NCBI GenBank assembly: GCA_018062445.1
Contig: JAGOSG010000002.1
Location: 1 to 58,673 of the forward strand
Direction of reading: 5' to 3'
DNA from: Minisyncoccota bacterium
Lineage (GTDB): Bacteria; Patescibacteriota; Minisyncoccia; Phycocordibacterales; Phycocordibacteraceae
Length of the DNA: 58,673 bases
The notes beneath the pieces are model-generated. The model saw nothing but the letters and a program-made list of their open reading frames with translations. It ran no database searches and was not told the origin of the DNA. The position numbers were made by a program, and so were the translations under genes. Below, in pieces: positions 19,368 through 57,225 of this stretch (position 1 is the first letter of the stretch; each line of letters starts with the position of its first letter).

Positions 19368-20447
19368 TTATATAGAACACCTCGAGAGTGCCTTTTGGTA
19401 ACAGAGGAGATACTCTTCCATAGACATACTGTGCTCCTTGGCAGACTTGAGTGCATTGGTAGCTAAAAGCACGCGAAGCTCTTTGTCTGCAATAAAACGC
19501 TTCATAGCGTCCGCAATTGCCGAGCTAATTCCCGAAACTACTAGGGCTTCCTTTTTATCCTCGAGCACTTCACCAACAATCCCAACATCAGTGGTTATGA
19601 TTGCAAGACCCGAGAGCCCTGCTTCTATAAGAGATACTCCGTACCCTTCAAATCGAGACGCCTGAACAAACACATCTGCAGTTTTATAGTATGGCGCTGG
19701 ATCTTGCCAACCAACAAAATGCACTCTGTCCCCTAACCCTAAACGCTTTACCCTAAACTCCAAACTCTTCTTCAGTGGTCCATCGCCCACAATGGTAAGT
19801 TCAGCCTCAGGGGTAAGAGCTATCGCATCAATAATTAAATGAACTCGTTTTTCGCTCGTCAGTCTAGAAACTGATAGAAATTTTAAATTTCGTGGAGACT
19901 CTACCTCTACCCTCTTACCTCCTCCGTCGTATTCAGTATGAATAGGCAACACTGTCACCGGAACATTAGTAATTTTGCGCACGCTTTTGGCAACACGCTC
20001 TGAAACAACACGGATGCAGGTAGCGCGACCTAAAATAAAAATAGCAAGTAATGCCTCAATAACACGGCGAGGTGATTCTGTAAGAAAACCGAAAGAAAAA
20101 CAATCCGTGTGCAGTTGCACTTGAAGCGGAATGTGACGCGCCTTTGCAATACCGTACCCCAGCATGCCGATGAAAAAAGGATCTTGTGCTGACACAATGT
20201 CATATGTCTTCTCTTTAGTGAGCGCACGAAGAGCACGACGTGTATTTAAAAAACTAGTAAATTTATTTGCCCCTCCTGAAGTTATTGCCTTAACGCTTGG
20301 CGCAAGCATGATCTCTTTTGGTGCTCCAACGCCCACCACAACAATCAATAGTTCGTCAACAATACTGCCGTAAAGAGCCATGCGATTTGCTACGCGTGAA
20401 TCTGCATCAAAAATCTTTACATCACTTGAAAGCATCAACAGGCGCAT
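19368..20447 (-). CDS. Glycosyltransferase family 4
   Basis: VSRLTSEKRV, SRFEGYGVSLIEAG. Confidence 0.9.
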   Translation of the reverse strand: MRLLMLSSDVKIFDADSRVANRMALYGSIVDELLIVVVGVGAPKEIMLAPSVKAITSGGANKFTSFLNTRRALRALTKEKTYDIVSAQDPFFIGMLGYGIAKARHIPLQVQLHTDCFSFGFLTESPRRVIEALLAIFILGRATCIRVVSERVAKSVRKITNVPVTVLPIHTEYDGGGKRVEVESPRNLKFLSVSRLTSEKRVHLIIDAIALTPEAELTIVGDGPLKKSLEFRVKRLGLGDRVHFVGWQDPAPYYKTADVFVQASRFEGYGVSLIEAGLSGLAIITTDVGIVGEVLEDKKEALVVSGISSAIADAMKRFIADKELRVLLATNALKSAKEHSMSMEEYLLCYQKALSRCSI

Positions 20448-26944: not shown

Positions 26945-27012
26945 TGGCGTTGAGGGTCTAGCGAAGACACAAATATACAAAAAGACTAAGTGGCTAAATG
27001 ATTAAGTAGAGA

Positions 27013-27054
27013 CGATATAGTTTAATCTAACGATCGTTAGATTAAACTATATCG
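27013..27054. promoter_or_regulatory. 42-bp perfect palindrome, site 1 of 3 (candidate operator or recombination site)
   Basis: cgatatagtttaatctaacga|tcgttagattaaactatatcg. Confidence 0.75.
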
Positions 27055-27672: not shown

Positions 27673-27720
27673 AAATAATCCTTTCTAAAAAATAATGTAG
27701 CAAAAATGCTTAAATAATAA

Positions 27721-27762
27721 CGATATAGTTTAATCTAACGATCGTTAAATTATACTATACCG
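27721..27762. promoter_or_regulatory. 42-bp imperfect palindrome, site 2 of 3, 49 bp upstream of the PaaX-like gene
   Basis: cgatatagtttaatctaacga|tcgttaaattatactataccg; contains TATAAT on the minus strand. Confidence 0.75.
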
Positions 27763-31503: not shown

Positions 31504-31567
31504 ATATACATCTTTCCCCTTCTAAGAAAATGCGCCACCCAATCCATCGTAATTAAGTGGAAAACCT

Positions 31568-31609
31568 CGATATAGTATAACTTAACGATCGTTAAATTAT
31601 ACTATATTG
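31568..31609. promoter_or_regulatory. 42-bp imperfect palindrome, site 3 of 3, 65 bp upstream of the lipase-like gene
   Basis: cgatatagtataacttaacga|tcgttaaattatactatattg; contains TATAAT on the minus strand. Confidence 0.75.
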
Positions 31610-37235: not shown

Positions 37236-37274
37236 TAGCTTTCAAGCTTTCAGCTTCTAGCTGTTAGCTTTTAG
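37236..37274. repeat. Degenerate heptamer tract (NAGCTNN) upstream of tRNA-Gln
   Basis: tagcttt c aagcttt cagcttc tagctgt tagcttt. Confidence 0.7.
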
Positions 37275-37299
37275 AGAATACTATGGAAACAAAGCAGAT

Positions 37300-37954: not shown

Positions 37955-38000
37955 CCCTCCCTATGTATCACTGTAGTACTACAGTGATACATAGGGAGGG
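37955..38000. repeat. 46-bp perfect loop-less palindrome
   Basis: ccctccctatgtatcactgtagt|actacagtgatacatagggaggg. Confidence 0.85.
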
Positions 38001-39812: not shown

Positions 39813-39930
39813 AATAGGGTTTGACTAGCGACGTAGAGTGAGAGAAATACAAAAGTACGCTTTTGGATTTCCGAACCGAGGACGCTAGAAAGGATTGGCG
39901 GGATTCCCCGACACATCCTTACAACTGAAT

Positions 39931-40024
39931 ACGTATCAAGAGTGTGAGGAGGCATCTGGGCCTATGATTCACCAGCAACTTGTCGAAAGATAAAGTGCTA
40001 CCAGCCCTTCGGGGAAAGATATCT
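39931..40024 (+). ncRNA. SAM-I riboswitch aptamer upstream of metK
   Basis: TATCAAGAG...GGAGGCATCTGGGCCTATGA...CCAGCAAC...GTGCTA...GAAAGAT matches the SAM-I consensus; P3 acttgtc-gaaa-gataaagt, P4 ccc-ttcg-ggg. Confidence 0.85.
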
Positions 40025-40029
40025 TAAAC

Positions 40030-40090: not shown

Positions 40091-41143
40091 ATGCTTCACT
40101 TACTTAAGACATACACAACCGAGAGCGTTACCGCAGGACATCCCGACAAAGTCTGCGATCAAATATCAGATGCCATTTTAGATGCATGCTTAACGCAGGA
40201 TCCAACGAGTCGAGTCGCCGTTGAATCCTTCGGCAGTCATGGGTACATGATGCTTGGTGGTGAAGTACGCACAAAGGCGACTATTGATTACGCAGGTATT
40301 GCAAAACAGGTATATACAGATATTGGCTACACAGAACCATTAGACATTCTTGAACACATCGCAAAACAATCTGGAGATATCGCGATGGGGGTGGACACCG
40401 GTGGCGCAGGCGACCAAGGCATCATGTATGGTTATGCCACGAATGAAACAAAAGAAATGCTCCCGCTCGGTGTTGTACTTTCACATGCACTCGCACGACG
40501 CCTTGAAGCACTCCGCCGCGGAGGCACACTTCCATGGGCACGGCCTGACGGAAAGACACAAGTCACTATTTCAAACGGAAAAGTAATTACTGCACTCACT
40601 TCAACTCAACACACAGCAGATGTTTCTCAAGAAGAAATCCGCACGAAACTCATTGAGCATTTATTCGGGCCGGTCCTCGGAGATTTGTCTGGAATTGAAA
40701 TATTGGTAAATCCAACAGGTCAATTTATTCAGGGAGGCTTTGAGGCAGACGCAGGACTCACTGGACGAAAAATAATGGTGGACACCTATGGAGGCCTCAT
40801 GCCACACGGAGGCGGAGCTTTCTCAGGAAAAGACGCCACGAAAGTTGACCGTTCGGCCGCATACATGTGCCGATTTGCTGCAAAGAATCTCGTTGCAAAT
40901 GGCTACGGAACTAAAGTATTAGTCTCAGTCGCCTATGCTATTGGCCGTGTGGAGCCGGTGATGGTAGAAGCCTTCGATGATTCTGGAAAAGATTTAAGTG
41001 AGATTGTACAGAAAAATTTTGACTTCCGTCCACGAGCAATCATCGAGCGCCTCGGTCTCACCCGCCCTATCTTCCAACAGACAGCGGCATATGGACACTT
41101 CGGAGTTGAAGGTAGACCGTGGGAAAATATTGAGAAGATTTAA
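40091..41143 (+). CDS. metK: S-adenosylmethionine synthetase
   Basis: TTESVTAGHPDKVCDQISD, GAGDQG, DAGLTGRKIMVDTYGG, GGGAFSGKD. Confidence 0.96.
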   Translation: MLHLLKTYTTESVTAGHPDKVCDQISDAILDACLTQDPTSRVAVESFGSHGYMMLGGEVRTKATIDYAGIAKQVYTDIGYTEPLDILEHIAKQSGDIAMGVDTGGAGDQGIMYGYATNETKEMLPLGVVLSHALARRLEALRRGGTLPWARPDGKTQVTISNGKVITALTSTQHTADVSQEEIRTKLIEHLFGPVLGDLSGIEILVNPTGQFIQGGFEADAGLTGRKIMVDTYGGLMPHGGGAFSGKDATKVDRSAAYMCRFAAKNLVANGYGTKVLVSVAYAIGRVEPVMVEAFDDSGKDLSEIVQKNFDFRPRAIIERLGLTRPIFQQTAAYGHFGVEGRPWENIEKI

Positions 41144-41160
41144 AAAGTATCGTACCTAAA

Positions 41161-41200
41161 ATAAAAAATCCCTCGTCGTATACGACGAGGGATTTTTTAT
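41161..41200. terminator. Bidirectional terminator between convergent metK and pilin genes
   Basis: Perfect 40-bp palindrome ataaaaaatccctcgtcgta|tacgacgagggattttttat. Confidence 0.85.
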
Positions 41201-41208
41201 TAAAAACA

Positions 41209-43663: not shown

Positions 43664-43684
43664 ATCGGATTAGAATAACACAAC

Positions 43685-43762
43685 AAGCTGTCAGGTTCCA
43701 GCTTTCAGCTGCCAGCTTTTTGACTTCAAAGCTGAAACCTGGCAGCCGACAGCTGGAAGCTT
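43685..43762. repeat. Head-to-head heptamer tracts (NAGCTNN) between ftsX and pyrG
   Basis: aagctgt caggttc cagcttt cagctgc cagcttt ... aagctg aaacctg gcagccg acagctg gaagct. Confidence 0.7.
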
Positions 43763-45592: not shown

Positions 45593-46501
45593 CTACACCT
45601 CTTCACTTGAATCGGAGTCTGCAACTTTTCCAGACTGCATTGCTTGTATGAATGTATCTAATTCACCAGAAAGCACCGCATCAGTGTCATGCATTTCAAC
45701 GCCAGTGCGATGATCCTTCACTAATTTATATGGATGGAGCACATATGAGCGAATCTGACTCCCCCATTCATTCTTCACGGTACCTGCAATTGAAAGTCCT
45801 TTTAACTCACGGGCACGCTTCTCTTCTTCAAGAATAAATAATTTTGCACGCAACAGAGTAAGCGCACGGTCGCGATTTGCAGCTTGAGAGCGTTCGGTAG
45901 AAGCACGCACCGCGAGCCCGGTTTGTTTGTGCACAATGCGTACTGCTGTTTCCCTTTTGTTAACATTCTGCCCCCCTGCCCCACCTGAACGAGAAAATTG
46001 TACTTCTATCTCGTCATCTTTTATTTCTAGCCCTTCTCCTGGTGCAAACTTTGGAACCACTTCCACAAGCGCAAAAGATGTTTGTCGTTTTGCATTCGCA
46101 TTAAAAGGAGAAATGCGTACTAGTCGGTGAACCCCTGCCTCGTGCTTCAAGTTGCCGTATGCACCAGTACCTGCAATCTCACAGGTGACACTTCGAAAAC
46201 CTCCATGGTCATTTTCATTTTCGTCCAAAAATGTTACCGACCACCCTTTCTTTGAAGCATGTCCTTGGTACATGCGAAAAAGAATACCGGCAAAATCTTC
46301 AGCGTCGTCCCCACCAGCACCTGCAAGAATAGATAGTATGGCTGACCCTTTGTCGTAACGAGTAGGCCCCGCAACAATGGCCTCCAAATCTTTCATTTCA
46401 CGAATCATCTTCTGTGCTTTATCCACATCCAGCCAAAAATCAGCGCCTGCCATCGCTGTTTCAATTTCTGTAATACGAGCTTTTGCTTGGTCGGGAGACA
46501 T
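45593..46501 (-). CDS. prfB: Peptide chain release factor 2 (shortened domain 1)
   Basis: AGAGGDDAEDF, HRLVRISPF (SPF), SGGAGGQNVNK (GGQ), WGSQIRSYVLHPY. Confidence 0.9.
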   Translation of the reverse strand: MSPDQAKARITEIETAMAGADFWLDVDKAQKMIREMKDLEAIVAGPTRYDKGSAILSILAGAGGDDAEDFAGILFRMYQGHASKKGWSVTFLDENENDHGGFRSVTCEIAGTGAYGNLKHEAGVHRLVRISPFNANAKRQTSFALVEVVPKFAPGEGLEIKDDEIEVQFSRSGGAGGQNVNKRETAVRIVHKQTGLAVRASTERSQAANRDRALTLLRAKLFILEEEKRARELKGLSIAGTVKNEWGSQIRSYVLHPYKLVKDHRTGVEMHDTDAVLSGELDTFIQAMQSGKVADSDSSEEV

Positions 46502-46507
46502 ATGAAC

Positions 46508-46542
46508 TAGGGTATAGGGTTTAGGGGTTAGGGTCTAGGGGG
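46508..46542. repeat. Heptamer tract (TAGGGNN x5)
   Basis: tagggta tagggtt taggggt tagggtc tagg. Confidence 0.8.
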
Positions 46543-46759
46543 TATCTCGGAGAAATTCAAAACGCGGAACTTCTTTCCCTTCAATTAACACAATTTCATT
46601 AAACATTGAAAGAGGTCTGACCCATAATCGAGACGAAGTATTTTCATACAATGCCTCGTAGACCACCACATCTTCTAAAGTTTCGCTGTGTTTAGCAACA
46701 CCAATTACTCTATACTCCCTACCTTTGTAATGACGGTAAATACCTTTTGCCAAAATCAT
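46535..46759 (-). CDS. DUF1653 family protein
   Basis: GIYRHYKG..Y.V...AKHSETLEDVVVYEALY..LWVRPLSMF. Confidence 0.88.
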   Translation of the reverse strand: MILAKGIYRHYKGREYRVIGVAKHSETLEDVVVYEALYENTSSRLWVRPLSMFNEIVLIEGKEVPRFEFLRDTP

Positions 46760-48504: not shown

Positions 48505-49500
48505 TTAACGACCCGCAATAAAGGTCGCATCAAATGCCCACGCCGTTGCACGGTCAATCTCTTCTTGGGTGAGTATATTTTCTTTAAGCAAATATGCTTC
48601 TTCATCGGCTAAGTTGGACTGATACATTTCTGGTCCATCAGTATTGATGGTGAACTTCACACCACTATCCACAAAAGCGCGGAGCGTAGAACGCAATTCA
48701 TCAACACTCTTAATGATGCTATTTTTCAAGTTTGATGTTGGGCAAATTTCAAGCGTTATTCCAGCATCTCGCACCAACTCAAGAAGCGATGGGTCTTGTG
48801 CCGCGAGTATGCCGTGTCCGATTCTATTTGGTTTGATTGTAGTTACTACATAGCGCATTTCATCAACTGAACCTTCTTCTCCCGTATGAATGGTGACACC
48901 AAGTCCTCTGTCGCGCGCACGAGCAAATAAAGGGGCGTGTGCCTCCATAGAAAAATCCTTTACATGCGGACCTGCAATATCGATACCGACAACGCCGTCC
49001 TTAGCATAGCGAATTGCTTTGTCTAAAATAATCTCATTCTGTTCAATTGAAAACCGGCGATCCATGGAAAGAAGAATGCCTGCTTTAACTTGAGGATACT
49101 CCAGAAGTGCGCGGTCCATACCTCGGAGACTCGCACTAATAATGTGATCGAGATCTCGCTCACCAGAGCGATTGCGACGCATAGGATTAAAACGAAGCTC
49201 CTGCAATACAATGTTGCATTTTCTATATCCCCCACCAATGACTGAGTGTACTGACACCTCAAGAGCTTCTGGCGATGATTGGATGCGCTCTGTCCACTCA
49301 AAATATTTACGATCCATTTCTTCGAGCGAGGTATTTCGCTCGTCCGCAGACATAGTAATCATTTCTTCAAAATCCCAATAGTCTTTAGAGGGGAGTTTGA
49401 TGCCTTGCTGGTGAGCAATCGTCCACATGATGACGGGGTCCACGGATGAGCCGAGGTGTGAATGGAGTTCTGCCCGTTTTTTCGTCATGTGATGCACCAT
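48505..49500 (-). CDS. Adenosine/adenine deaminase family amidohydrolase
   Basis: ELHSHLG, GIDIAG, TIHTGE, RIGHG, EICPTSN, INTDGP. Confidence 0.88.
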   Translation of the reverse strand: MVHHMTKKRAELHSHLGSSVDPVIMWTIAHQQGIKLPSKDYWDFEEMITMSADERNTSLEEMDRKYFEWTERIQSSPEALEVSVHSVIGGGYRKCNIVLQELRFNPMRRNRSGERDLDHIISASLRGMDRALLEYPQVKAGILLSMDRRFSIEQNEIILDKAIRYAKDGVVGIDIAGPHVKDFSMEAHAPLFARARDRGLGVTIHTGEEGSVDEMRYVVTTIKPNRIGHGILAAQDPSLLELVRDAGITLEICPTSNLKNSIIKSVDELRSTLRAFVDSGVKFTINTDGPEMYQSNLADEEAYLLKENILTQEEIDRATAWAFDATFIAGR

Positions 49501-49562
49501 ATACTGTCTACAAAAAATACTCCTTAATGTATTTTCATACTATCACGGAGCATCTAAAATTC

Positions 49563-49706
49563 TGGAGCCGATGATCGGAATTGGCGTCAAGTCACTAAGC
49601 TCGAGGACTTACTAAGTGCTTCCTGCCCGACCTCGCCTGCCGTATACGGCATGGCTCTGGTTTTCAATTCCGAACATACGCAAAGCAGTTTGCGTATTCC
49701 ATTCGC
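49563..49706 (-). other. tRNA-trailer structured element at tRNA-Thr(GGT)
   Basis: Antisense T-arm copy split by a 22-nt hairpin, conserved core, then a 21-bp direct repeat of the tRNA 3' end at 49563-49583. Confidence 0.75.
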
Positions 49707-49782
49707 TGGAGCCGATGATCGGAATTGAACCGATGACCCCCACCTTACCATGGTGGTGCTCTACCAACTGAGCTACATCGGC
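49707..49782 (-). tRNA. tRNA-Thr(GGT)
   Basis: GCCGATG...CATCGGC-T-CCA, anticodon arm CCACC-ATGGTAA-GGTGG. Confidence 0.95.
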
Positions 49783-49853
49783 GGGTGCGAATATAGTATC
49801 CGAAAAACTGACTATTGCCAAAGTAAATGTACTTTTTGAACTGCTAGAATACA

Positions 49854-50402
49854 TTGGTGCTTAAGCATTACCCTCGCTTCACTACTATTGCCCTCTCGTA
49901 TGTTGCAGCGGGATTACTTTTTATATTTCTTGGTCCTGAATTTTTTCAAACACTCATACTGCCATTTGGCATCTTTGGGGTCATCGTCGCTGGAGCTCTG
50001 TACACCTACAGCTTCACCACAGCTATCGGAGCTCTGCTTTTAATCGCGCTTGTTCCGTATCACCCAATAGGAGTGCTAGCCGTCGTGGGCGGCATTGGAG
50101 CCACGCTTGCCGATTTCACTATTTTTAAATTCGTCCGTGATGATTTAAAGAAAGAAGTGCGACGATTTGGTGCTTCAAAGATGATACAAAATGTATGTTC
50201 AGCCAATGGAATTCTATGTAAAAAGTGGATGCGTAATCTGATGGGAGTCATGATTATGGCTTCACCATTTCCTGATGAACTCGGCATTGCAATGATGAGT
50301 ACCACAAAGATGAAGCGCGAAACATTTCTACTCCTTGCATTTATTGTAGATATAATTGGTATCTATCTTTTGGTATTCACTGCGAGCGCACTGTTGCCGT
50401 AG
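49854..50402 (+). CDS. Hypothetical membrane protein (DedA/VTT-like, tentative)
   Basis: Five to six TM segments, GGIGATLAD, SPFPDELG motif. Confidence 0.65.
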   Translation: MVLKHYPRFTTIALSYVAAGLLFIFLGPEFFQTLILPFGIFGVIVAGALYTYSFTTAIGALLLIALVPYHPIGVLAVVGGIGATLADFTIFKFVRDDLKKEVRRFGASKMIQNVCSANGILCKKWMRNLMGVMIMASPFPDELGIAMMSTTKMKRETFLLLAFIVDIIGIYLLVFTASALLP

Positions 50403-50426
50403 CAAGCAAAAAACATCATTCCGCTT

Positions 50427-50476
50427 GTCAGCACCCAACGCAGGCAAAGCAGTTTGCCTGCTTCAGCCGCTTGCCA
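50427..50476 (-). other. tRNA-trailer element (antisense module only) at tRNA-Asp
   Basis: gtcagcaccca + ac + 22-nt hairpin + t + tcagccgc..gcca is the tRNA-Asp 3' end, inverted and split. Confidence 0.75.
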
Positions 50477-50477
50477 T

Positions 50478-50514
50478 AAGAAAAAACGAATATCTATGAT
50501 ATTCGTTTTTTCTT
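50478..50514 (-). terminator. Terminator-like hairpin directly 3' of tRNA-Asp
   Basis: aagaaaaaacgaatatc-tat-gatattcgttttttctt. Confidence 0.75.
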
Positions 50515-50589
50515 TGGCGCGGCTGATGGGTGCTGACCCCACGACCTCCCGCGTGACAGGCGGGTGCTCTACCGTTGAGCTACAGCCGC
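50515..50589 (-). tRNA. tRNA-Asp(GTC)
   Basis: GCGGCTG...CAGCCGC-G-CCA, anticodon arm CCCGC-CTGTCAC-GCGGG; atypical T-loop GTCAGCA. Confidence 0.92.
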
Positions 50590-50783
50590 AAATGAGGGAG
50601 AGAGTGAAAGTTTATTTTCACTCTTCCCGAATGCCGCGGCTGAAAGCTTTGCTTACAGCCCGCAAACCCATCGGAAGATGCTCCTGATTCAATACGACCT
50701 CAAACTTGCCTCGAGATCGTGTATTTGCGATTCTACCAGAAAAAGCCTTTAAAAACGAGTGCGGGGAGAACCTAGCATCAGCA

Positions 50784-50949
50784 TCGGGAGGACTAGGCCA
50801 CGAGTAATCTTGCGCCGTCGCTTAAGATTCTCTCGGCCCCCGCTCACGGTCCAGCGAGGCGCTGGACATCGTTCCGCGCTGCAAGTCCTCACGCATTGTG
50901 CATTTGCACAATGCTCTCCCGACACAATATGTCGCTTCGCTTTATATTG
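50784..50949 (-). other. tRNA-trailer structured element at tRNA-Met/Ile2(CAT)
   Basis: tgcaagtcctc + ac + 22-nt hairpin + t + ctcccgacacaa; core ctctcggcccccgctcac..gacatcgttccg; partial sense copy tcgggaggact. Confidence 0.75.
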
Positions 50950-51023
50950 TGTCGGGAGGAGGACTTGCACCTCCGACCTAGGGCTTATGAGTCCCTCGCT
51001 CTAACTACCTGAGCTATCCCGAC
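50950..51023 (-). tRNA. tRNA with CAT anticodon (elongator Met or Ile2)
   Basis: GTCGGGA...TCCCGAC-A, loop CTCATAA, T-loop TGCAAGT; CCA not encoded; Met vs Ile2 not resolvable by eye. Confidence 0.88.
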
Positions 51024-51045
51024 AATGAGACTAATCTATCATTAT

Positions 51046-51726
51046 TTAGGTCTTCTTCAAAAGCGTTTCCGCTACAGCCACATCTTCCGGGTAGGTTACG
51101 GTAATCCATTGATTTTGGCGAACAACGGCCACGGGCTTTTCTTTCGCAATCACTGAGAGCATATCGGTCAAGAAATATTCGCCAAGTCGTGGGTGAGCAA
51201 ACGGAGTGATTAAAAACATATCAGGAGAAAGTATCATTGCGCCAGAATTTACCAGATTACCAACAGGGTTTTCTGGTTTCTCAACAACCTCTTTAAGTGT
51301 GCCATCGGGATTTAACTCAACAACACCGTAGCGTTCAGGATGTTCTTTCTCTGCTACAAAAAGACAGTATTCATACTCAACTCCTTTTGTGAAAGCCTGC
51401 TTGTCACCAATATCATCACCATAGAGCATGATGAATTTTTCAGTTATAAGCTCTTTCGCTAAATATACTGCGTCCCAAGTTCCAATTTGTTTTTCTTGAA
51501 CAATGTAATGAACGGACTTCCCTTTCCATTCAGTACCAAAGTACTCTTGTATTTTTTCTCCTTTGTACCCGATGATAATCACAATGTCAGTCACCACATC
51601 AGGGAGTTGCTCCAATACATATTCTAGAAGTGGCTTCCCATTAAGAAGCACCATGCCTTTGGGCTTTTCGTCCGTGAGTGGACGAAGTCGTTGCCCTTCT
51701 CCGCCTGCGAGTATTAAAGCTTGCAT
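51046..51726 (-). CDS. Sugar-phosphate nucleotidyltransferase (NTP_transferase)
   Basis: ALILAGGEGQRLRPLTDEKPKGMV, YGDD, YGVVEL, EVVEKP. Confidence 0.88.
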   Translation of the reverse strand: MQALILAGGEGQRLRPLTDEKPKGMVLLNGKPLLEYVLEQLPDVVTDIVIIIGYKGEKIQEYFGTEWKGKSVHYIVQEKQIGTWDAVYLAKELITEKFIMLYGDDIGDKQAFTKGVEYEYCLFVAEKEHPERYGVVELNPDGTLKEVVEKPENPVGNLVNSGAMILSPDMFLITPFAHPRLGEYFLTDMLSVIAKEKPVAVVRQNQWITVTYPEDVAVAETLLKKT

Positions 51727-51785
51727 GAATCAAATAGTACCGACAAATACAAGAAAAGGAAACGTGTCAGGCAAACTTAAAAATC

Positions 51786-52118
51786 CTAATCCTCCCTGTC
51801 TTCAATATCCTCAATATACTTTCTTACCGGTTCCGCTACTGTATCTTCATTAATGTCTCTTGTAATACAGAAATCTGTTTTAAACCAATCCCTTATTTTT
51901 TTATTTCCTCTACTTGAATTACAGCTCCAGCAGCAAATCGTAACGGTTGCCGGGTTATTCCAGGGTGGCAAATAATTCAAGTGTTCGATTGTGTACCAAT
52001 TGGAGCGTTTATTATGTGCGCCGTGATCTGTCATTTTCTTGTGACAGTAGACACATATTTTATCTCTTTTAAAAATACGTTGAAGCTCATCTTTAGGGAG
52101 CCCATAGTTGTTTTTCAT
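51786..52118 (-). CDS. Stand-alone HNH endonuclease
   Basis: RDKICVYC ... TIEHL ... CCWSCNSSRGNK. Confidence 0.75.
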   Translation of the reverse strand: MKNNYGLPKDELQRIFKRDKICVYCHKKMTDHGAHNKRSNWYTIEHLNYLPPWNNPATVTICCWSCNSSRGNKKIRDWFKTDFCITRDINEDTVAEPVRKYIEDIEDRED

Positions 52119-52166
52119 AGTTTGATTTATGCATGACAGTCACCTGATTGGCATATGACTGCTACT

Positions 52167-52471
52167 GGGGCCAGGATTTGGTCACGAGTCAGTAAGTATT
52201 TTACCTCCACAAGTTCGAAAAATACTAACTGCTCTCGACCCCACCTCACCTGTCGCAGAGCGACATGGTTCCGGTTTTCGAATCCTGACGCAAGACGAGC
52301 AGTCGTCGATGTCCGGATTCTCTCCTTACAGGAGCTGTACACCTTTGCAATTTTCTCGAAGCAAAACTTCTCAAAAATATAGCAAAGGACTTCGAATCCT
52401 GGACATGAAGCGTGCAGACGCTTCATTCCCCGCAACGCAAAACACCGAGCGGATGCTCGGTGTTTATCTTG
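52167..52471 (-). other. Composite tRNA-trailer structured element at initiator tRNA-Met
   Basis: Hairpin 52439-52465; antisense 3' end split by a 22-nt hairpin (52391-52436); second antisense T-arm (52278-52287); core 52180-52277; direct copy ggggccaggatt 52167-52178. Confidence 0.75.
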
Positions 52472-52542
52472 TTGCGGGGCCAGGATTCGAACCTGGGTCT
52501 GGAGGTTATGAGCCTCCTGAGGTACCACTCCTCCACCCCGCT
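52472..52542 (-). tRNA. tRNA-Met(CAT), probably initiator
   Basis: A1:A72 mismatch, GCGGGG/CCCCGC stem, anticodon arm GGAGG-CTCATAA-CCTCC; CCA not encoded. Confidence 0.9.
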
Positions 52543-52550
52543 ATATTAAT

Positions 52551-52585
52551 TAGCTTTTAGCTTTTAAGTTCCAGCTGTCAGCTTT
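52551..52585. repeat. Heptamer tract (YAGCTNN) upstream of tRNA-iMet
   Basis: tagcttt tagcttt taagttc cagctgt cagcttt. Confidence 0.75.
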
Positions 52586-52660
52586 AAAGACAATAACTCA
52601 TTCCAACATCGATTTCAAGCCACGCCTTCATTCTGCATGTTTCTGCATTGACGCTTTGCG

Positions 52661-55141: not shown

Positions 55142-57225
<2,084 letters not shown>

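Follow-up and report, generated by a model that had tools for sequence, protein, structure and literature searches.

A duplicated tRNA 3' end bounds a structured 144-nt unit

When the 3' end of a tRNA gene occurs twice in close succession, the second copy may be the scar of an integration or a working part of a structure. The tRNA-Thr(GGT) locus of the Minisyncoccota DNA analyzed here (58,673 bases in full, from a Parcubacteria/Patescibacteria, or CPR, genome; hereafter the window) raises this question. The window contains two exact copies of the sequence TGGAGCCGATGATCGGAATTG, at 49563-49583 and 49707-49727, and no third copy even when three mismatches are allowed, and a chance repeat was ruled out by the lack of any match in 100 dinucleotide shuffles. 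The initial annotation had reported an exact 21-bp repeat at the 3' end of tRNA-Thr(GGT), and this is accurate, the identity reaching 22 bp with one more flanking base (C at 49562 and 49706). Because ARAGORN and Rfam place tRNA-Thr(GGT) here, the repeat corresponds to its final 21 nt, made up of CAATT from the T-loop, the 3' strand of the T-stem, the 3' strand of the acceptor, the discriminator, and the encoded CCA. The locus contains the following features.

49793..49821, minus strand: promoter-like site TTGGCA-17-TACTAT just upstream of tRNA-Thr (consensus scan, 9/12 matches)
49707..49782, minus strand: tRNA-Thr(GGT), intron-less, with CCA encoded (ARAGORN; Rfam tRNA model, 70.7 bits)
49707-49727, minus strand: proximal repeat copy, the last 21 nt of tRNA-Thr(GGT)
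49563..49706, minus strand: whole 144-nt Thr unit, delimited from the sequence
49700..49706, minus strand: heptamer GCGAATG, similar to an acceptor 5' strand and identical at 5/7 positions to GCCGATG of the tRNA
49676..49697, minus strand: hairpin H1 (the "core"), with a perfect 9-bp stem and the 4-nt loop CUGC
49663..49675, minus strand: invariant linker GT and, after it, the 11-nt module TCGGAATTGAA
49630..49661, minus strand: conserved interior domain, a G-A-loop hairpin, recognized from invariant columns and compensatory changes
49584..49629, minus strand: variable distal interior
49562..49583, minus strand: distal repeat copy, the 21-nt tRNA 3' end together with one flanking base

On the minus strand, the Thr unit runs from the base after the tRNA CCA to the CCA of the distal copy. 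The dinucleotide GA separates the heptamer from H1. The module TCGGAATTGAA (49673-49663) combines the 5' strand of the T-stem with the exact reverse complement of the tRNA-Thr T-loop; read on the opposite strand, this 11-nt antisense module is TTCAATTCCGA (49663-49673), reverse-complementary to 49719-49729. The interior domain consists of a 3-bp helix, an internal loop AGA/GA with G-A pairs, and the bulged hairpin GCC-A-TGCCG-TATA-CGGCA-GGC; its columns C48, A51, T56, G73, A74, and G75 are invariant, and G50 is nearly so. We do not claim a K-turn as the reading of the G-A loop, the bulge being 1 nt instead of 3. The 123 bp between the repeat copies had been described as holding only the antisense module and the core, without an ORF. 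The module, the core, and the absence of an ORF stand (the three listed ORFs touching the region run into the tRNA), but the interval also holds the conserved G-A-loop hairpin domain (49630-49661) and the variable distal part.

When the whole Thr unit was folded with RNAfold (-49.1 kcal/mol, z -2.4), its ends paired together: the distal copy paired with the module over 9 bp and, through its CATCGGC, with the heptamer GCGAATG at 5/7 positions. The predicted fold is an acceptor-like stem stacked on a long helix, with a single-stranded UCCA terminus. The covariance model R1, described below, recognized 49623-49706 with 73.3 bits (E 1e-15).

Several simpler identities were rejected. Neither ARAGORN nor the Rfam tRNA model (E up to 10) found a tRNA or tmRNA within 49563-49706; a tRNA gene or pseudogene was dismissed, as the tRNA models found no cloverleaf and the resemblance to a tRNA is confined to the unit ends. 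A MITE or IS-derived element was likewise discarded, since the 123 bp lack terminal inverted repeats (the termini read GCGAATGGAA... and ...GACTTGACGC) and the repeat is 22 bp long and coincides with the tRNA end. No Rfam family matched the units, and a known RNA family was rejected: searches of the window at the gathering score and of 49450-52600 with E up to 10 returned only tRNAs and a SAM riboswitch. The riboswitch (39930-40025, 47.6 bits) lies upstream of the S-adenosylmethionine synthetase gene (40091-41143), an ordinary arrangement. By eye, the 123 bp showed no similarity to the tRNA-Thr intron of a related contig, L001.

No terminator was found between tRNA-Thr(GGT) and the Thr unit, and for this reason the promoter-like site at 49793..49821 is likely to be the start of a transcript containing both, although a consensus scan alone is weak evidence for a promoter there.

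Empty and occupied alleles at the tRNA-Thr locus

The initial annotation had proposed a search for empty sites in related genomes, and three contigs with a single repeat copy were indeed found (L001, L083, and L082). In these, the tRNA 3' end directly abuts GAATTTTA..., the sequence lying beyond the distal repeat in the window, so that exactly 123 bp and one repeat copy are missing. The identity of the empty-allele contigs was 97.4% downstream for L001, 96.0% for L082, and 98.5% for L083, the last to the occupied L002. Occupied alleles were found at the same place in L002, which has a 144-bp unit and a flank with 87% nucleotide identity to the window, and in L087, a JGI metagenome contig with a unit of approximately 162 bp. 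The counterpart of 49584..49629 in L087 is different and longer, and is homologous to units at tRNA-fMet and tRNA-Asp. The presence of empty and occupied alleles at one place indicates that the Thr unit is an insertion/deletion polymorphism with the repeat as its exact boundary. The contig L081 (98.8% identical) starts exactly at the repeat, which fits an assembly-graph branch between two alleles and suggests that both occurred in one sample.

In L002 and L087, the proximal copy ends in CTCCAG and the distal copy in CTCAG, the latter also being the form in the empty L083. This pattern gives no direction, because integration of a CCA-encoding end and deletion between the repeats would both produce it. 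In L082, a short Logan contig with its tRNA at 44-119, the acceptor 5' strand GCCGAGA mismatches the 3' strand CATCGGC at two pairs; the same GCCGAGA would fit the acceptor 3' strand TCTCGGC of the tRNA-Thr in L085. The L082 allele may be a true recombinant within the tRNA or an assembly chimera. Genes for tRNA-Thr(GGT) without a unit were found in plain form in L089, L091, L083, and L082 and in intron-bearing form in L001 and L090. Only three sequences carry the Thr unit, which, from this sampling of contigs, appears to be young or patchy; the patchy distribution also fits mobility.

Between the window and L002, the Thr units differ at only 4/123 positions, versus 28% of the third codon positions of add and 35% of the next 62 nt of spacer (P about 5e-13 for 4/123 against 28% under neutrality). 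This low divergence appears to exclude a neutral relic. It is no proof of recent transfer, because the interior of an old fMet unit differs at only 5/76 positions between the same two sequences, and recent horizontal transfer was accordingly weakened as a candidate explanation.

The adenosine deaminase gene add (48505-49500, minus strand) lies just downstream of the unit; its protein is 99% identical in L001, a "Parcubacteria group bacterium" MAG, and 95% in another MAG, L002. For the 182-aa ORF upstream of the unit, no exact-protein record was found. Within the window, 49583-51021 (tRNA-Met, tRNA-Asp, the 182-aa ORF, tRNA-Thr, and the unit) is 82-86% identical to L001, with flanks at 97%, and this block has apparently been replaced by recombination, its right edge being the distal repeat copy.

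A family of tRNA-specific units

The Thr unit is not a one-off element. In 10 sequences (the window and nine related contigs), tRNA-fMet, -Met, -Asp, and -Thr genes are followed by at least 20 homologous units, which occupy orthologous positions even in relatives with protein identity as low as 60%. The contigs of the distant relatives were found via the 256-aa neighbor of tRNA-fMet (60-73% protein identity). Judged from these comparisons, the family appears conserved and is apparently undescribed. Besides the Thr unit, the window contains the following members.

50781..50923, minus strand: paralogous unit after tRNA-Met(CAT) (50949-51023), R1 87 bits
50403..50470, minus strand: truncated unit after tRNA-Asp (50515-50589), reading GCGGCTG AA hairpin GT TGGGTGCTGAC
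52167..52434, minus strand: two tandem units after initiator-type tRNA-Met (52471-52542)

The Met unit reads GTCGGGA GA hairpin GT GAGGACTTGCA, followed by an interior and a degenerate 3' copy, AGTCCTCCCGAT. The first of the tandem fMet units differs in its interior ("type B"); the second, of type A, has AATCCTGGCCCC at its end. The Asp unit of the window stops after the first hairpin domain and lacks the interior and the 3' copy, both of which are present in L001, L002, L089, L090, and L093; full Asp units are located, for example, at L001:1899-2040, L090:8503-8651, and L002:2799-2970. Between the full Asp unit and the 182-aa ORF, relatives have a terminator along with one to three additional genes, including a member of the Exo_endo_phos family. 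The full units and extra genes in relatives point to a deletion in the window.

The units share one plan: a 7-nt copy of the tRNA acceptor 5' strand, RA, a hairpin, GT, the 11-nt module, the G-A-loop hairpin, and a copy of the tRNA 3' end. The order from acceptor copy to module was kept in 18 of the 19 tabulated units, the sole exception being the second fMet unit of the window, in which the acceptor copy and the hairpin are degenerate. Across the plan-bearing units, H1 has a 9-bp stem and a 4-nt loop, except for stems of 8 bp and 6 bp in two of them, and about 10 different stem sequences are represented. At the heptamer position, the acceptor copy is exact in the Asp, Met, and fMet units.

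The module is specific to the adjacent tRNA. At 33-80 nt downstream of the tRNA, an 11-nt stretch exactly complementary to its T-loop and four of its T-stem bases was found for 4/6 tRNAs in the window (Thr-GGT, Asp, Met, and initiator-type Met), 3/5 in L002, 1/5 in L005, and 10/17 in L089, L090, L091, and L093; mismatched tRNA/module control pairs matched in 4 of 394 cases. Among three fMet tRNAs with the T-loop variants TTCGAAT, TTCGATT, and TGCAATT, the module tracks the variant. In every unit, the module is complementary to the real tRNA T-loop at 7/7 positions, even where the 3' copy of the unit lacks the T-loop part. This full match hints at pairing with the tRNA or its gene, not only within the unit.

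The Thr unit is a mosaic: 14 nt are common to the Thr and Asp hairpins, and the Thr interior of L087 matches the fMet interior of L090. These shared stretches suggest that units recombine with one another. Matches to unit parts in L030 and L086 lie inside coding sequence and were set aside as chance.

Covariation and maintenance of the 3' copies

In an alignment of 15 units under a three-helix structure, 91.3% of the cells were paired versus 66.8% in shuffles, and 20 of the 23 pairs had changed on both sides; none of 500 shuffles reached the observed values, and slid controls gave 34-44%. In H1, 161/164 cells were Watson-Crick across units. As a strand comparison, G-U and A-C cells numbered 11 versus 9, favoring neither strand. 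A nearly pure Watson-Crick H1 would also suit a DNA-level palindrome. The covariance model R1 was built from the three-helix structure and used to search 748 kb of sequence. It returned 20 hits, confined to the window, L001, L002, L005, L087, L089-L091, and L093; all were on the tRNA strand directly downstream of tRNAs, with no hit away from a tRNA in the 748 kb.

Exact 14-19-nt copies of the unit's own tRNA 3' end are kept in old units whose interiors have diverged beyond alignment, namely the fMet units of L002, L005, and L093, the Asp units of L090 and L093, and the Met unit of L089. In L093, the 3' copy includes the T-loop variant of that lineage. This maintenance indicates that the tRNA-end repeat is a built-in part of the unit and no integration scar. 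The view that the repeat is an attL/attR by-product fails on the same ground, as the 3' copy is predicted to pair inside the unit and remains exact in old fMet, Met, and Asp units. RNAfold paired the 3' copy with the module and the heptamer in the Thr unit and the L002 fMet unit; in the other units folded, the acceptor-like ends paired and the module was unpaired with the 3' copy. Several older units lie between two bidirectional intrinsic terminators with no visible promoter, and such boxed units could be transcribed by read-through only.

Search for a recombinase, a parent element, or a circle

According to Pfam, the approximately 54 ORFs of the 58.7-kb window are housekeeping and cell-envelope genes, with no integrase, recombinase, transposase, or reverse transcriptase among them. 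Genes of these kinds were likewise missing from those called in five syntenic 12-kb loci in relatives. Viral contigs were scanned three times, once for each arm (left and right) and once for the hypothetical circle or tandem junction (...GACTTGACGC-CAATTCCGAYCATCGGCTCCAG-CGAATGG), with 0 hits to a larger parent element or a circle junction, and a phage or satellite origin was rejected on these scans. A metagenome scan with a single 21-mer, which divergent Thr units would escape, returned L087 and one chance hit. The earlier suggestion of a miniature integrative element is thus borne out in the precise empty and occupied alleles, but these searches found no recombinase, parent element, or circle junction to go with them.

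Introns and other repeats near the tRNA genes

The tRNA-Asp and tRNA-Thr alleles of the window are intron-free. At L001:1592-1822, the anticodon loop of tRNA-Asp is split by a group I intron (RF00028, 29.8 bits, under the gathering score), and tRNA-Thr(GGT) at L001:3719-3898 and L090:11190-11369 carries a 180-nt insertion after GGT that contains a group-I-like AAGATACAGTC element, has U at -1, and ends in G. At L001:875-1450, between tRNA-Met and tRNA-Asp, lies an ORF absent from the window that contains ...LGFFAADGYI... and by eye resembles a LAGLIDADG homing endonuclease.

Upstream of tRNA genes, we observed "microhelix" leaders composed of the acceptor 5' strand, TAAGCAAAGCTTT, and the acceptor 3' strand, followed by a conserved leader of approximately 45 nt ending in ...TCTCCCTCAYTT. 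These leaders, which are sometimes tandem, occur at 50636-50663 (minus strand) of the window, at L001:3606-3632, and in L002, L003, L005, L083, L085, L089, L090, L091, and L093; their acceptor sequences track the downstream tRNA between genomes. Repeats of AGCTNNN with a 7-nt period are located at 37241-37276, 43682-43731, and 52555-52590 of the window, two of these three sets being directly upstream of tRNA genes (Gln and initiator Met), and similar repeats precede tRNA-fMet in L005, L090, and L093. They may be a promoter or UP-like element. A second 7-nt periodic repeat, TAGGGTN/CCCTAAN, occupies short gene-end spacers at 17-48, 19737-19768, 46494-46554, and 55142-55188, and similar runs follow tRNA-Thr(CGT) or its neighbor in L002, L089, L090, and L091. 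Perfect palindromes of 42-46 nt occur at 26996-27054, 27704-27762, 31551-31609, 37955-38000, and 41160-41201; three of these belong to one repeat family (CGATATAGTTTAATCTAACGATCGTTAGATTAAACTATATCG).

Comparison with known tRNA-associated systems

A duplicated tRNA 3' end had been taken as an established mark of attL and attR, yet it is not diagnostic: the tyrT/tyrV trailer of Escherichia coli K-12 (NC_000913.3) has the same feature without any integrative element. It contains three 178-bp rtT units, each terminated by 19 nt identical to the tRNA-Tyr end (AATCCTTCCCCCACCACCA). RttR RNA is a product of these repeated units of the tyrT operon (PMC3318445) and is involved in processing of the tyrT transcript (bioRxiv 10.1101/2024.07.17.603846). 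The annotated end of RttR is the CCA of the first tRNA-Tyr-end copy, and in the minimum free energy structure, the internal GGGGAAGGAU pairs with AUCCUUCCCC of the copy (positions 53-62 with 154-163).

Like rtT/RttR (RF00391), the Thr unit is a same-strand tRNA trailer that ends in an exact tRNA-end copy including the CCA (19 nt in rtT, 21 nt in the Thr unit), and in the predicted folds of both, an internal antisense segment pairs with the copy and encloses a structured interior. Tandem arrangement is possible in both rtT and the Parcubacteria units, and neither needs protein machinery of its own. However, the Thr unit has no sequence similarity to rtT and no match to RF00391 in Rfam (gathering score; E up to 10). 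In contrast to rtT, the Parcubacteria family serves four tRNA species and has an added bipartite, tRNA-specific 5' module and the conserved G-A-loop domain. The rtT antisense is one continuous 10-mer over the T-stem and acceptor strand, not the T-loop, and rtT also overlaps a small ORF (tpr). By analogy, the Parcubacteria units are probably best filed with the rtT kind of tRNA-trailer unit and not as members of RF00391.

Integrative elements and CIMEs, as in streptococci, resemble the Thr unit in that the direct repeats at their borders are copies of a tRNA gene's 3' portion. CIMEs and the Thr unit family also have in common empty and occupied alleles in close relatives, the lack of an internal recombinase, and tandem occurrence at one tRNA. 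To our knowledge, however, the Thr unit is 10-100 times smaller than any described CIME, and no helper element or integrase was found in the window, the syntenic loci, or the viral-contig scans. In addition, the repeat of the Thr unit is a structural part that is kept in old fixed units, and the interior is complementary to it.

The third group of relevant systems comprises tRNA-like processing signals, such as t-elements, the tRNA-like domain of tmRNA, and RNase P minihelices. These share with the Thr unit the paired acceptor-like ends, the acceptor-like stem stacked on a second helix, the NCCA end, and the position adjoining a tRNA gene; in the Thr unit, however, the T-loop is paired away, and there is no D-arm or anticodon arm.

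Proposed function and alternative explanations

With moderate confidence, we consider the Thr unit to be an rtT-like structured RNA of the tRNA trailer that is gained and lost by recombination at tRNA-end repeats. It would most likely be transcribed together with tRNA-Thr(GGT). Folding and family comparison predict that the unit RNA closes on itself, its 3' tRNA-end copy pairing with the heptamer and the anti-T module, and that the resulting long coaxial helix imitates the acceptor/T-arm half of a tRNA and ends in NCCA. Through this mimicry, the tRNA end-processing enzymes would free the unit: the predicted RNase P cut at its 5' end would coincide with the mature 3' end of the tRNA, and 3' trimming or CCA maintenance at the other end would yield a stable RNA of approximately 144 nt. 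The function would reside in the conserved interior, formed by H1 and the G-A-loop hairpin, perhaps as protein binding. Recombination between identical tRNA ends would allow the unit to be easily lost and regained from relatives, a route to empty and occupied alleles that would need no dedicated integrase. Several points speak against the rtT-like reading: the similar counts of G-U and A-C cells (11 versus 9) single out no transcribed strand, H1 is nearly pure Watson-Crick, the boxed older units show no promoter, the module matches the real T-loop even where the 3' copy has no such part, the Thr unit is patchy among relatives, and neither sequence nor structure matches the Rfam rtT family.

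In an unlikely alternative, the unit bears a guide. This guide, 18-19 nt made up of the acceptor copy and the anti-T module with H1 between them, would base-pair with the 3' part of the cognate tRNA, its precursor, or its gene. The unit would then act either as a tRNA-specific antisense regulator or chaperone or as a cassette that encodes its choice of target as nucleic acid sequence, as in bridge-RNA or guide-directed insertion, with the 3' copy as a donor-side mimic of the target. It is correspondingly doubtful that the units are a new class of tRNA-addressed modules in Parcubacteria that steer tRNA maturation or their own insertion without an element-encoded protein. The perfect Watson-Crick palindrome of H1 fits a DNA-level role, and the 7/7 complementarity to the real T-loop in every unit, even where the 3' copy lacks it, together with the covariation of the module with T-loop variants, the reach to four tRNA species with tRNA-specific ends, and the shuffling of modules between units, would be expected of a guide. 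However, the units have no associated protein gene and no copy away from a tRNA in 748 kb, and pairing with a folded mature tRNA would need unfolding of the acceptor and T arms. Moreover, both guide halves pair with the same strand, unlike those of IS110 bridge RNAs, which counts against a guide.

It is quite unlikely that the Thr unit is a miniature CIME-like element without an integrase, whose 21/22-bp repeats would be attL and attR and which a tyrosine (or serine) recombinase from another part of the genome or a helper element would move in trans. Like classical att sites in tRNA genes, the repeat does begin in the T-loop and reach the end of the tRNA, and precise empty and occupied alleles occur in two lineages, with the start of L081 suggesting both in one sample. 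The tandem units at tRNA-fMet resemble accretion, the Thr unit is absent from more distant relatives, and the distal CTCAG of L002 and L087 equals that of the empty L083, which would follow if the native end were the distal copy. Yet deletion between the repeats would give the CTCCAG/CTCAG pattern equally well, and recent transfer is not needed for the low divergence of the unit (4/123), which is matched by that of the old fMet interior (5/76). There is no recombinase in the 58.7 kb or in the relatives' loci, and the viral-contig and metagenome scans found no larger element sharing the arms and no attP or circle junction. Units fixed at orthologous tRNAs across 60-73% protein identity retain exact 3' copies, which scars would not, and a double-stranded circle of 144 bp, about one persistence length, is a poor recombination substrate, which also counts against this explanation.

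A functionless relic, either the cargo-less remnant of a tRNA-Thr island or a decayed tandem tRNA duplicate, is already disfavored and very unlikely: tRNA ends commonly serve as integration sites, GCGAATG resembles an acceptor strand at 5/7 positions, and partial degeneration is seen in the window's Asp and Met units, but the Thr unit belongs to a strongly covarying family, differs far less between the window and L002 (4/123) than third codon positions (28%) and spacer (35%), is not recognized as a tRNA by ARAGORN or Rfam (E up to 10), and loses its identity to the tRNA abruptly, with no fading.

Implications

Genomic-island calling routinely takes a duplicated tRNA 3' end as an att scar, and the Thr unit points to a second, structural origin of this signature. 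Ultra-small CPR genomes spend approximately 130-220 nt per tRNA on conserved, covarying, tRNA-specific non-coding units. If these are processed RNAs, the long-neglected rtT principle, in which a trailer RNA borrows the tRNA end, would reach a distant phylum and several tRNAs. If the units instead pair with the tRNA or its gene, they would represent a new kind of tRNA-directed regulator or address-bearing cassette.
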